Sequence record: OX638291.1
Origin: Escherichia phage vB_EcoP-CC2
DNA length: 1,949 bases
Direction: 5' to 3' (one strand)
Shown: positions 1 through 1,949 of the stretch, one piece after another
Position numbering within the stretch: the stretch's first letter is position 1
How the letters are laid out: every line of letters begins with the position of its first letter
Notes under the pieces: model-generated
The model's input: only the letters and a program-made list of their open reading frames with translations
Told to the model about the DNA's origin: nothing
Database searches by the model: none
Translations under genes and position numbers: made by a program

Positions 1-127
1 ATTGGATCGTCCTTAAACTAACACCGAAATAATCAGCTAAGAATTTTTGGTCACATACAACAGCCCCACACGATTTATCTATATTTTGAGCAAAAAAAGA
101 ATATAGCCTAAATGCTCTGGGAACCTT
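1..127. repeat. Terminal direct repeat, left copy (identical to 1823..1949); consistent with a circular molecule or tandem multimer of period 1,822 bp
   Basis: Base-by-base comparison: 1..127 and 1823..1949 are identical over all 127 bp and both run to the window edges. A minus-strand reading frame continues in phase across the implied junction. Confidence 0.95.
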
Positions 128-289
128 CTCAGATATAGAGTCCAACATATTCCAGCCCGCCTTAGTAACCTGCGACCAGTCAGGTGGATTCAACCGATCT
201 CGTTTTTGCTTAGCACTTTTGGATTGATCTTGTGCCTGATGATCTCGCCGTTTTTGCTGTTCGAAATCTTCAAATTGCTGTTCCAGCAT
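1..289 (-). CDS. N-terminal part of the same junction-spanning gene (window-start copy); likely start ATG at 287..289; 1..127 duplicates 1823..1949
   Basis: Minus-strand frame with codons 287..289 down to 2..4 is open and in phase with 1947..1949 across the 1,822-bp period. ATG at 287..289 is preceded on the minus strand by 'AGGTAAGGATGCAAGT' (AAGGA Shine-Dalgarno-like, about 7 nt spacing). Unique part 128..289 encodes MLEQQFEDFEQQKRRDHQAQDQSKSAKQKRDRLNPPDWSQVTKAGWNMLDSISE. Joined product is about 177 aa. An alternative start at ATG 146..148 would give about 131 aa. Confidence 0.5.
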   Translation of the reverse strand, partial: MLEQQFEDFEQQKRRDHQAQDQSKSAKQKRDRLNPPDWSQVTKAGWNMLDSISEKVPRAFRLYSFFAQNIDKSCGAVVCDQKFLADYFGVSLRTIQ

Positions 290-307
290 ACTTGCATCCT
301 TACCTGC

Positions 308-403
308 AACGTTGTTTCGTACCTTACGAAATTTATATCGTACATTACGAAACAACACACGCAAACATGTTTGCGTATACACATGCAAATAACGTTTCGT
401 ATG
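308..403 (-). promoter_or_regulatory. Putative promoter/operator (possibly iteron-type oriV) region upstream of the Rep-like gene
   Basis: Seen directly: two 13-bp palindromic sites 'tcgtaccttacga' (317..329) and 'tcgtacattacga' (338..350), each embedded in a 15-bp direct repeat (317..331 and 338..352, one mismatch) spaced 21 bp apart; perfect 14-bp palindrome 'gcaaacatgtttgc' (361..374); inverted repeat 311..321 with 346..356; 'aacgtttcgta' (391..401) echoing 308..321; 8/9 match to DnaA box TTATNCACA at 375..383 ('gtatacaca'). Minus strand has a 'TATAAAT' -10-like element (complement of about 332..338). No convincing -35 found. Confidence 0.45.
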
Positions 404-409
404 TTGGTG

Positions 410-510
410 TCATAATGCTTTGATTTTTAAGAGAATGTCGATTTTTGCTCTAAAGATCTATCAAAGCACTTTTTTGCTACACAAGATTTAATTAGTTCAT
501 CGAACATTTG
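410..510. other. AT-rich intergenic tract, possible DNA-unwinding element of a vegetative origin
   Basis: Visibly AT-rich non-coding stretch between the repeat/operator cluster and the GC-rich module; contains two of four copies of the octamer 'tttttgct' (443..450, 471..478; others at 203..210 and 251..258). Functional role is inference only. Confidence 0.3.
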
Positions 511-600
511 GGGTGTCGGGGCGAAGCCCTGACCCAGTCACGTAGCGATAGCGGAGTGTATACTGGCTTACTCTTCTGCAAGCCTCTTCAGCCGTGATTT
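511..600. other. ColE1/pMB1-type bom (oriT)-like region with a candidate nic motif
   Basis: 'gggtgtcggggcgaagccctgacccagtcacgtagcgatagcggagtgtatactggcttact' closely resembles, from memory, the pBR322/ColE1 bom segment '...gggtgtcggggcgcagccatgacccagtcacgtagcgatagcggagtgtatactggcttaact...'. By analogy the nick would fall in 'ctgg/ctta' (about 566/567). Not verified by alignment. Confidence 0.5.
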
Positions 601-705
601 TGCCCGATTTCGCGCTCTCCACGTTCAACAGCTCGATCATGTTTTTGCAGTCCGTTCACCGCTAAAACGCCCCGCATCAGTGCGTACGTGCTCAATGTGG
701 TTTCC

Positions 706-772
706 GGTTCTCTTCCGCTTCCTCGCCCACTCGCTCACTAACGTTCGGTCGCTGGGGCTGCGGCGAGCGGTG
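706..772. other. Segment resembling the ColE1 primosome assembly site (pas/ssi) downstream of the ColE1 origin
   Basis: 'tctcttccgcttcctcgcccactcgctcactaacgttcggtcgctggggctgcggcgagcgg' parallels the pBR322/pUC backbone motif 'ctcttccgcttcctcgctcactgactcgctgcgctcggtcgttcggctgcggcgagcgg' (recalled). Functional assignment as a pas site is from general knowledge of ColE1 and is uncertain here. Confidence 0.35.
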
Positions 773-833
773 CCACCTCTCGCATGTTATCGGTGATTCC
801 GCTGTTGTTCTTTCGGGGATGAGTCGCCAGATA

Positions 834-864
834 GCTCTTCAAACGCTCTCAGAAGCTCTCAGAC
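834..864. repeat. Three tandem imperfect copies of a 10-11 bp unit (gctcttcaaac / gctctcagaa / gctctcagac)
   Basis: Read directly from the sequence; unit length is near one helical turn. Function unknown. Confidence 0.4.
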
Positions 865-1075
865 GCACGAAACGGGTTTTAAATGCCCATCAGGGCATGG
901 AAGGCGCGAAAAACGCTTACAGAGGGTTTTAGGAGGTCAGGCGCGCCGATACCCCTAACCAGGGGATTTCAGGTCGCCAGGAACCGCGTCAGCCCCCTGC
1001 AAAGCCCATTTGCACGGAATAGGCAGCCATGCGGTTGGTAGGTGGTCGTAGACCGTCGATGTTACAGCGACGGGG

Positions 1076-1130
1076 GTCTGGGGTTCTCCCCAGACGGTTT
1101 CCGGTTGCGCTCAAGGCGCTGCCGGAACCG
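1076..1130. other. Two adjacent GC-rich stem-loops (possible ssDNA or RNA structural element)
   Basis: Perfect 8-bp stem 'gtctgggg' (1076..1083) / 'ccccagac' (1088..1095) with loop 'ttct'; then an imperfect extended hairpin with arms 'cggtttccgg' (1095..1104) / 'ccggaaccg' (1122..1130) and inner 'gcgc'/'gcgc' stem. No U-tract follows on either strand, so not a canonical intrinsic terminator. Confidence 0.35.
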
Positions 1131-1277
1131 TGGCGGCTCGGTCGTTCTGGAAAACGGGGAGCAAAAAGACGCAAGGGATTTTGAGGCGGCAAAAGAGCAA
1201 TGCAGGATAGACAATCAACTAGAAATTGCATGCAATGTTCTGTGGATTGTCCGCCTACCGCTGGCTCTGTATGGCCA

Positions 1278-1565
1278 TCACTTTTTTCGATATTTATCTA
1301 ACTCAATTACAGGTGCAGGAATTTTTTTCTTCACACTTTTTTTTGGTTTTTGTATTTTTTCATTGTTGCTAACGACAAACATAATTTTCTTTCCATCTTC
1401 ATTGACAATATCAACGGGATTAAACTCCTTATCTTCACAATTCATATATAGATTTATTCCCATTGCATATTCGATATGATATTCATCAATTAACGAATCT
1501 ATTGATCTACATATTTCTAATTTTAGTTCTTCTAATTTCCAACGTGATTCATATTTAACTCTCAT
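1278..1565 (-). CDS. Hypothetical small protein (95 aa), function unknown; immediately downstream of the Rep-like gene on the same strand
   Basis: ORF track 1278..1565 (-), ATG start, TGA stop. Only 12 nt (1566..1577) separate it from the upstream stop, suggesting co-transcription or translational coupling. Weak SD-like 'TAGGT' about 9 nt upstream. Mixed acidic N-terminal half and Lys-rich C-terminal tail (KIQKPKKSVKKK...KYRKK). AT-rich like the upstream gene. I do not recognise the sequence. Confidence 0.5.
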   Translation of the reverse strand: MRVKYESRWKLEELKLEICRSIDSLIDEYHIEYAMGINLYMNCEDKEFNPVDIVNEDGKKIMFVVSNNEKIQKPKKSVKKKIPAPVIELDKYRKK

Positions 1566-1577
1566 AGCGCATCATAC

Positions 1578-1949
1578 CTAGTCCAAGTCATGATTAGATG
1601 TCTTAAGCGAGCCTTCAAACTCTTCTCTCCTAGAGAGCATGAGCCGCAACTTGCGATCAATAACGCCATCTTTTTGAGTTAATGTTTTTGCGTTAAACGC
1701 TGCATATTTTTTAGATTTATTATATCCGCGCCATACCTGATACGGATCTAACGCATAAGCATAATAGATACCTACTGGTATTTTCACGATGGCACCAATA
1801 CTTTCTAAATCTCCAATCCAATATTGGATCGTCCTTAAACTAACACCGAAATAATCAGCTAAGAATTTTTGGTCACATACAACAGCCCCACACGATTTAT
1901 CTATATTTTGAGCAAAAAAAGAATATAGCCTAAATGCTCTGGGAACCTT
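1578..1949 (-). CDS. C-terminal part of a junction-spanning gene for a putative replication-initiator-like HTH protein; 5' end truncated by the window edge and continues in 128..289
   Basis: The listed ORF 1578..1787 begins at an internal GTG; the same frame stays open upstream to the window end (manual translation ...KVPRAFRLYSFFAQNIDKSCGAVVCDQKFLADYFGVSLRTIQYWIGDLESIGAI-VKIPVGIYY...HDLD, stop TAG at 1578..1580). The motif 'QKFLADYFGVSLRTIQYWIGDLESIGAI' has the pattern of a (winged) helix-turn-helix as found in small plasmid/phage Rep proteins. Family assignment is inference; no search was run. Confidence 0.6.
   Translation of the reverse strand, partial: KVPRAFRLYSFFAQNIDKSCGAVVCDQKFLADYFGVSLRTIQYWIGDLESIGAIVKIPVGIYYAYALDPYQVWRGYNKSKKYAAFNAKTLTQKDGVIDRKLRLMLSRREEFEGSLKTSNHDLD
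1823..1949. repeat. Terminal direct repeat, right copy (identical to 1..127)
   Basis: Same comparison as for the left copy; offset between copies is exactly 1,822 bp. Confidence 0.95.

Follow-up and report, generated by a model that had tools for sequence, protein, structure and literature searches.

The two ends of the window (the whole stretch of 1,949 nucleotides analysed here) each hold part of a minus-strand reading frame, which raises two questions: whether the parts form one gene, and whether its product starts replication of the DNA that carries it. We conclude that the joined frame is very probably repL, encoding a single-winged-helix replication initiator of a 1,822-bp Col(MG828)-type plasmid, with the function carried over from a 42%-identical homologue, pKL1 RepA.

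A plasmid gene split across the ends of a contig

Direct comparison within the window revealed that bases 1-127 are an exact copy of 1823-1949, and since the first 127 bases equal the last 127, the true circle measures 1,822 bp. Circularity rests on complete records besides this terminal overlap. About 20 complete circular Escherichia/Shigella records, each exactly 1,822 bp long, match the circle at 99.2-100% identity. A preliminary description had noted that a linear element would leave the two halves of the gene unjoined; the complete 1,822-bp circular records instead carry repL uninterrupted, for example at 575-1108 of NZ_CP090002.1 and 133-663 of NZ_CP049843.1. Other public assemblies contain this plasmid as contigs 1,899 to 1,949 bp long, in which the gene is split into two terminal partial CDSs. 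The 1,822-bp plasmids are typed Col(MG828) by PlasmidFinder, and the segment comprising repL and the neighbouring orf95 was present, always on a plasmid, in 31 of the 5,426 complete E. coli genomes. The window contains the whole of a circular 1,822-bp E. coli plasmid, one of the Col(MG828)/pKL1 kind; the split gene is laid out as follows.

1..127, no strand: terminal overlap, a copy of 1823-1949; an assembly artefact marking circularity, inside repL
1578..1949, minus strand: 3′ part of repL, aa 55-177 and the TAG stop codon (1580-1578); 1823-1949 repeat 1-127 as an assembler duplicate
128..289, minus strand: 5′ part of repL, aa 1-54, ATG at 289-287; charged N-terminal helix and conserved N-x(3)-F/W-x-Q-V motif
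297..301, minus strand: Shine-Dalgarno sequence AAGGA, 7 nt before the repL ATG; conserved in the 1,902/1,906-bp variants

When 1578..1949 is joined to 128..289, the resulting 534 nt form a continuous minus-strand frame encoding 177 aa and a stop codon. The preliminary description had proposed just such a junction-spanning ORF of ~177 aa, with a Shine-Dalgarno-supported ATG at 287..289; the joined length is 177 aa, the CDS is contiguous in the complete circular records, and AAGGA stands upstream of the start at 301-297. It had also remarked that the ORF track showed only a GTG-initiated tail of 69 aa, which is the frame listed at 1578..1787. Compared with the 1,902/1,906-bp variants, repL has 44.8 synonymous and 12.2 non-synonymous differences (dS 0.60, dN 0.03, dN/dS 0.049). 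The joined ORF is a real gene under purifying selection, and RefSeq names its protein "replication/maintenance protein RepL" (WP_000893324.1). In recognising the contig as circular, rebuilding the gene split at its boundary and inferring its role, the preliminary description was correct and is useful as a check.

Family membership of RepL

An HMM search, the check that had been suggested for the joined ORF, matched Pfam RepL (PF05732) above the gathering threshold, by a narrow margin of ~2 bits and over part of the profile (22.5 bits, cut-off 20.3, E 9e-5; aa 59-142 aligned to positions 57-136 of the 164-position profile). No NCBIfam model was matched by RepL, the scores for HTH_11 (16.5) and HTH_36 (15.4) were both under the 25-bit cut-off, and no family HMM of the stand-alone wHTH regulators (MarR/ArsR/DeoR/Crp-type) reached threshold. 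Exhaustive HMMER searching with a profile built from close relatives collected 474 clusters (50% identity) at E up to 1e-3, indicating a family of modest size. Among 88 diverse members, HTH_36 was matched by 79 and RepL by 64, the best at 3.7e-10. When the 88-sequence profile was aligned by hhalign with the staphylococcal RepL of pKKS966, the probability was 99.6% (E 5.4e-24, 137 aligned columns), and with pIGMS31 RepM it was 59% over 74 columns, confined to the wHTH. A PDB sequence search with RepL returned no meaningful match, and its PHROGs matches were weak (E 0.002, "replication initiation protein"). With 177 aa and a single winged helix on a circle of 1,822 bp, RepL fits the size and architecture of the Pfam RepL family, whose members are proteins of ~18-20 kDa with one HTH on very small plasmids (PMC5703833). 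On these sequence comparisons, RepL belongs to Pfam RepL and, within Col(MG828), to the pKL1 RepA group.

Several other initiator classes were considered and rejected. The Rep_3 double-winged-helix initiators (RepE, pi, pPS10 RepA) do not accommodate a protein with one WH domain and palindromic sites, and RepL gave no Rep_3 Pfam match even at E up to 10. For the HUH and Rep_trans rolling-circle initiators, Pfam yielded no HUH, Rep_trans, Rep_1 or Rep_2 signature in RepL, and the predicted fold consists of a winged helix plus helices with no nuclease domain. Membership of the pHW126-like Reps was set aside on the weak, wHTH-only match to RepM and the lack of four 20-bp iterons.

Predicted structure and conserved residues

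The AlphaFold2 model built on the 88-sequence alignment had a mean pLDDT of 83.9, exceeding 90 in the core. A long helix is predicted at ~aa 1-32, the region that the preliminary description had read as Gln/Lys/Arg-rich and of low complexity. The composition was read correctly, but far from being disordered, this charged region is conserved and is predicted to form a single long helix (pLDDT >90). The winged helix that follows is predicted to comprise helices at 43-55, 57-68, 81-88 and 92-105 and strands at 76-79, 108-113 and 116-121. The central motif FLADYFGVSLRTIQYWIGDLESIGAI, earlier taken as typical of winged-HTH domains, is present at aa 83-108, in keeping with the single winged helix of the model. 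Beyond this domain, a conserved extension runs to ~aa 139, followed by a C-terminal helix of low confidence; neither a nuclease nor a helicase domain was seen in the model.

Conservation across the family involves the charged N-terminal helix, N34, F/W38-x-Q40, A-Y119-A-L-D/N-P, W127, K134 and F139. In the recognition helix, T94, I95 and L102 are fixed and positions 92, 96, 98 and 101 are variable. Y119 is conserved in 80 of the 88 members and is aligned with a Tyr of staphylococcal RepL. The fold resembles that of ArsR/MarR/CodY regulators, a likeness at the generic-fold level only.

Cis elements upstream of repL

Upstream of the repL start, the following elements were annotated.

315..331, no strand: perfect 17-bp palindrome TTTCGTA-CCT-TACGAAA; putative RepL dimer site/operator
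336..352, no strand: 17-bp palindrome TATCGTA-CAT-TACGAAA with 1 mismatch, centred 21 bp from the first
361..374, no strand: palindrome GCAAACATGTTTGC, flanked by the Rep-site palindromes on one side and the lone half-site on the other; also kept in the 1,902-bp variant
395..401, plus strand: lone TTTCGTA half-site, the fourth exact copy in the half-site count
410..499, no strand: AT-rich stretch (23-33% GC) separating the Rep sites from oriT; a candidate for the unwinding region
412..441, minus strand: candidate sigma-70-like repL promoter by pattern match, −35 TCGACA at 441-436, 18-nt spacer, −10 CATTAT at 417-412

Four exact TTTCGTA half-sites lie within 315-401, compared with 0.30 expected in the window, and 0 of 200 shuffles reached four. 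The palindrome at 315..331 is kept with 1-2 changes in the pMG828-1 type. The two Rep-site palindromes, 21 bp apart, constitute the sole direct repeat, and no tandem direct-repeat iterons were found; DnaA boxes, with six one-mismatch matches against 4.6 expected, showed no excess over chance. The palindrome at 361..374 is part of a flagged hairpin.

The promoter candidate is a 9/12 pattern match, of a kind no more frequent than chance. Overlapping it is a perfect IHF consensus, AATCAAAGCATTA at 425-413 on the minus strand (WATCAANNNNTTR at 413-425), likewise a pattern match; this match is lost in the 1,902-bp variant, and pKL1 has no perfect IHF match. Within the AT-rich stretch, a GATC occurs inside ATAGATCTTT, a sequence common to pKL1.

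The repeats upstream of rep vary with the Rep lineage, being GTCGCATCC in pKL1, TAGGAAA in lineage L007 and GAGACA in lineage L006, at the same place and different from TTTCGTA. Repeats that change with the lineage while keeping their place are what would be expected if an initiator co-varies with its origin or operator. The sequence AACGTT beside the Rep sites was tried as a family-wide origin core and rejected: it is present in the window, pKL1, the L006-type and the Arsenophonus lineages and absent from five others.

Backbone and orf95

The remainder of the circle comprises a non-coding backbone and a second gene.

507..1217, no strand: non-coding backbone, 55-64% GC; 89-95% nucleotide identity with pKL1 and plasmids of other Rep lineages
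511..570, no strand: ColE1-type oriT (bom) nick region; 59/60 identical to ColE1 1462-1521
710..771, minus strand: pas-like segment with a minus-strand AAGCGG; matches, at 82% identity, ColE1 1308-1367, which lies downstream of the ColE1 ori
1278..1565, minus strand: orf95, the second rep-operon gene, beginning 12 nt beyond the repL stop codon; pKL1 lacks it

The GC content of the repL-orf95 cassette is 28-37%, against 55-64% in the backbone. The backbones of pKL1 and L007 are 89-95% identical to that of the window, despite Reps only 42-50% identical to RepL, so the replicon is modular. We take ColE1 1462-1521 to be the bom/oriT nick region of ColE1/pBR322, and ColE1 1308-1367 is presumably the primosome-assembly-site region of the same plasmids. 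On ColE1, both matching stretches sit between rom and the RNAII origin, the latter placed near 1198 from the RNAI match at 645-749.

A likeness to the ColE1 ori noticed by eye at window 880-1140 was rejected as a remnant, because local alignment of window 772-1270 against the ColE1 ori/RNAII region (ColE1 640-1310) scored 21, with shuffles at 20.1 +/- 2.2 and the wrong orientation at 20. No credible Rfam match was obtained for the window (best E 0.2, well short of the gathering threshold), and no RNAI was found in the window, in pKL1 or in the 1,902-bp variant (L008), whereas the same tool detected ColE1's own RNAI at 73.8 bits. With no RNAI or RNAII and no homologous ori, the class of ColE1-type RNA-primed replicons was rejected.

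Some GenBank records annotate a "rep protein" ORF in the backbone. We discarded this candidate: the frame is broken in the window, where its longest open stretch is 86 codons, and substitutions are flat over its codon positions (14/12/16, 15/11/12 and 9/10/7). Single-stranded backbone DNA folds better than shuffles, with z about -2.7 on both strands, which suggests many hairpins; as the effect is not strand-specific, it does not discriminate between replication models.

The product of orf95 matched no Pfam, NCBIfam or PHROG family, and its single-sequence AF2 model reached a pLDDT of 44. The gene has a dN/dS of 0.28-0.30. Its other relatives are only ~40% identical and lie on Arsenophonus plasmids, and this distribution, together with its absence from pKL1, marks it as accessory. 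Given a non-coding backbone and an accessory orf95, RepL is the only candidate initiator on the circle.

Proposed mechanism and competing explanations

RepL is most likely an origin-binding initiator and autorepressor. Its gene would be transcribed from the AT-rich region upstream, and RepL dimers would bind the two TTTCGTA-N3-TACGAAA palindromes (315-352) through their winged helices. The promoter-like site lies on one side of these palindromes and the ribosome-binding site on the other, and RepL bound there could thereby repress its own synthesis. The extra half-site at 395-401, with oligomerisation through the long N-terminal helix, may allow a higher-order complex comparable to the pKL1 RepA hexamer. 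This complex would open the adjacent stretch of 23-33% GC (410-499), where the host replisome would then be loaded, and the conserved backbone would contribute an oriT allowing mobilisation in trans and a primosome assembly site of the ColE1 type, at which the other strand would be primed. If RepL is the initiator, theta-type melting of this kind is the course we mildly favour; the rolling-circle classification of the founding RepL plasmids, the pSN2 family, conflicts with this step (PMC5703833).

It is rather unlikely that the same RepL and sites drive rolling-circle replication, with RepL nicking one origin strand, possibly via Tyr119, and the displaced minus strand being made duplex from the pas- and hairpin-rich backbone as a single-strand origin. 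The rolling-circle class of the Pfam RepL founders speaks for this, though they are little studied (PMC5703833), as do the distantly related pHW126-like wHTH Reps, which have relaxase (nicking) activity in vitro and both rolling-circle and theta intermediates (bioRxiv 10.1101/2022.12.05.519187); the similarity to RepM of pIGMS31, however, is weak and limited to the wHTH. The near-invariant Y119, aligned with its staphylococcal counterpart, would suit a nicking residue, but it lies in a beta-strand of the wing and may be purely structural, in a protein in which neither a signature of the known nicking families nor a nuclease domain was found. Read 5′ to 3′ along the minus strand, the pas-like AAGCGG comes shortly before the Rep sites, which would match the usual sso-before-dso layout, and the better-than-shuffled folding of backbone ssDNA is also compatible with a single-strand origin. 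The pKL1 oriV with its IHF box and the RepA hexamer, as described in a secondary source (PMC3832669), fit a melting initiator better. A more far-reaching proposal, which we consider doubtful, is that RepL and pKL1 RepA form a distinct minimal initiator class, in which a single winged helix and an oligomerising helix, without a recognisable nuclease domain, would nevertheless nick DNA (candidate Tyr119 in the wing) and drive rolling-circle or mixed rolling-circle/theta replication; the ColE1-derived pas backbone would then serve swapped rep cassettes as an exchangeable single-strand origin and mobilisation cassette.

The two remaining explanations deny RepL the initiator role. The preliminary description, which favoured an initiator, had allowed that the protein might instead be a DNA-binding regulator; the initiator reading gained from the Pfam RepL threshold, the homology to pKL1 RepA and the want of another candidate on the circle, and the regulator reading lost ground with the failure to find RNAI or similarity to the ColE1 ori/RNAII. 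In its full form, the latter holds that the HTH protein governs only transcription or copy number and that replication starts from a host-driven, ColE1-like RNA-primed origin in the backbone. The ColE1-derived oriT and pas-like islands, in ColE1 order, the grouping of the type under "Col" by PlasmidFinder, and the resemblance of the fold to ArsR/MarR/CodY regulators would all agree with it. We nevertheless regard it as very improbable, considering the chance-level alignment of window 772-1270 and the missing RNAI/RNAII in the window, pKL1 and the 1,902-bp variant. Moreover, at most ~450 bp is available, compared with the ~555 nt plus promoter that RNAII needs; RepL matches initiator and not regulator families at threshold; and this one backbone is found with three Rep lineages, whose cognate repeats differ from one to the next. 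The literature (PMC3832669, PMC3526173) also treats pKL1 RepA as the replication protein. Scarcely credible is the notion that orf95 or a ~150-aa backbone frame is the true initiator and RepL an accessory. Some GenBank records do label the backbone ORF "rep protein" or "replication protein", and orf95 is under selection (dN/dS ~0.29); against this stand the broken backbone frame with its flat substitution pattern, the lack of a family match for orf95, and the pKL1-type plasmids, which have no orf95 and replicate with RepA alone.

Significance

Public databases contain this exact sequence together with its annotation and replicon type, and the locus is therefore already known. With the plasmid, gene, annotation and family name all available and a homologue studied biochemically, it is an ordinary member of its kind. 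Of wider interest is how initiators of 150-180 aa with a single winged helix begin replication, by melting or nicking and with helicase loading without DnaA boxes, which is poorly resolved across the RepL family. The Col(MG828) typing sequence sits in the non-coding oriT-pas backbone common to plasmids whose Reps are only 42-50% identical, so that this type lumps together plasmids that probably differ in incompatibility.

Comparison with known systems

The RepA_N-type single-winged-helix initiators (pSK41, pTZ2162; PDB 4pta/4pt7/5kbj) have no sequence-level match to RepL, which is without RepA_N or a C-terminal host-interaction domain and resembles them in structure no more strongly than it does ordinary wHTH regulators. 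The firmicute RepL proteins (PF05732, pSN2 family; pKKS966) are likewise small single-HTH initiators on very small plasmids, but they are only 24% identical to RepL here, which has a Gram-negative host and a ColE1-related backbone. Plasmids of the pSN2 kind belong to the rolling-circle class, with dso and ssoA (PMC5703833). The pHW126-like Reps (pIGMS31 RepM, pIGRK RepR) are also small wHTH plasmid initiators, in Gammaproteobacteria; they autoregulate, with Rep sites upstream of rep and an ssi element nearby (bioRxiv 10.1101/2022.12.05.519187). Their origins contain four 20-bp direct iterons and a conserved region, in place of the palindromes found here.

The Col(MG828) reference, pMG828-1 (NC_008486.1, 1,902 bp), has the same architecture throughout at ~88% nucleotide identity, with orf95 and the Rep-site palindromes conserved. 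It is ~80 bp longer because it keeps an inverted copy of the oriT arm. Its RepL is ~96% identical to that of the window and differs in the C-terminal tail.

By BLASTP, the nearest characterised relative of RepL is RepA of pKL1 (NC_002145.1, 1,549 bp), the sole CDS of that plasmid (WP_000469298.1), with 42% identity and 62% positives over 156 aa (E 4e-41). This RepA is reportedly the subject of Burian et al. 1997, 1999 and 2003. The likeness spans the charged N-terminal helix, the wHTH and the C-terminal A-Y-A-L-D-P..V-W..K..F motif, whereas RepL has 19 more residues and a different C-terminal tail. Among citing papers, PMC3526173 likewise gives repA as the only gene of pKL1, and PMC3832669 locates the oriV upstream of rep and assigns to it Rep-binding sites, an IHF box and a perfect inverted repeat of 16 bp; the latter paper also reports that RepA forms hexamers. 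Compared with pKL1, the cassette here has the extra gene orf95 and is much more AT-rich, and the 1,822-bp form is without a backbone piece of ~85 bp present in pKL1. The cognate repeats of pKL1, TTGTCGCATCC-T-GGATGCGACAA, differ from the TTTCGTA-N3-TACGAAA found here, as befits a different Rep lineage; like the 1,822-bp plasmid, pKL1 has inverted repeats upstream of rep, the oriT-pas backbone (89-95%) and the type Col(MG828).

Mosaic structure of the plasmid

Comparison with related plasmids revealed a sharp compositional and evolutionary mosaic, with positions 507-1217 on one side and positions 1278-1949 plus 128-506 on the other. The former, a non-coding backbone of 55-64% GC, is 89-95% identical between plasmids whose Rep proteins are just 42-50% identical. 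The latter, the repL-orf95 cassette, has a GC content of 28-37%, and its nearest relatives are found in Pasteurellaceae and Arsenophonus. This pattern implies that rep cassettes have been exchanged between plasmids. It also means that the probe used for Col(MG828) typing is probably directed at the backbone instead of the rep gene. Two features mark the junction between backbone and cassette:

1210-1251: imperfect palindrome with 21-nt arms
1262-1277, plus strand: terminator-like hairpin preceding a T-run

Conservation with pKL1 (NC_002145.1) extends over the flanks of this junction (as far as 1217, and at 1245-1267) but not over its centre.

Within the cassette, repL is followed by a second gene of the rep operon:

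1278-1565, minus strand: orf95 (95 aa), beginning 12 nt past the repL stop codon

The dN/dS of orf95 was about 0.29, and its distribution is limited to this plasmid type, apart from relatives of ~40% identity on Arsenophonus nasoniae plasmids. Searches of the Pfam, NCBIfam and PHROG families returned no match to orf95, and a single-sequence AlphaFold model was unusable (pLDDT 44).

Upstream of repL, a short palindrome lies beside the Rep sites:

311-316 and 394-399: AACGTT

The same palindrome adjoins the lineage-specific Rep sites in four of the ~9 Rep lineages, namely in the upstream regions of the window, pKL1, L006 (a further Rep lineage) and L010 (apparently the Arsenophonus lineage), at a similar distance to the start codon in all four. 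Its occurrence beside Rep sites is commoner than chance but not universal.

Annotation and assembly of related records

Some GenBank and RefSeq records carry a CDS named "rep protein" or "replication protein" inside the GC-rich backbone:

667-1140, plus strand: the corresponding frame in the window (131-583 in L007, another Rep lineage; 1189-1329 in L008, a 1,902-bp variant)

This annotation looks spurious, because the frame is interrupted in the window and substitutions are spread evenly across codon positions.

Positions 1-127 and 1823-1949 of the window form an exact 127-bp terminal repeat, as is characteristic of circular contigs assembled from a graph with k=127. The same plasmid occurs in public assemblies as contigs of 1,949, 1,915 and 1,899 bp, with repL cut into two partial CDSs. 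An 8.5-kb derivative, pER24y-8ksm (NC_024968.1), contains the window plasmid together with a transposon of the Tn3 family bearing aph(6)-Id and aph(3'')-Ib; its repL is annotated in two pieces (130 aa and 43 aa). NZ_CP146569.1 (3,631 bp), with two repL copies, looks like a near-dimer.

The enterobacterial plasmid of the window has a 100% identical counterpart in NZ_CP090002.1, a record titled "Staphylococcus aureus RN6390 plasmid unnamed". Family members or the ColE1-type oriT are also present on very small contigs of Kitasatospora, Nocardia and Micromonospora assemblies (L020, L021; H44). All these records probably reflect contamination or mislabelling.

Resemblance of the backbone to ColE1

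Two backbone segments resemble ColE1:

511-570: nick region of a ColE1-type oriT/bom, matching ColE1 at 59/60 positions
710-771: pas-like segment, 82% identical to the sequence just downstream of the ColE1 ori; its minus strand contains AAGCGG

The former corresponds to the region established as oriT/bom in ColE1 and pBR322. It is carried without any mobilisation gene, and the plasmid could be mobilised in trans only. MOB-suite classified the 1,822- and 1,902-bp forms as "non-mobilizable", yet pKL1-type plasmids with the same oriT sequence as "mobilizable". The latter resembles a PriA-type primosome assembly site, a putative function suggested by sequence likeness. Relative to the Col(MG828) reference plasmid pMG828-1 (NC_008486.1), pKL1 and L007, the 1,822-bp form lacks ~85 bp at about 666/667. 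At the end of the absent segment lies the oriT-proximal arm in inverted copy, GGGGTGTCGGGGCGAAGCCCTGACC, and the nick region of those three plasmids is consequently flanked by an inverted repeat of ~25 bp.
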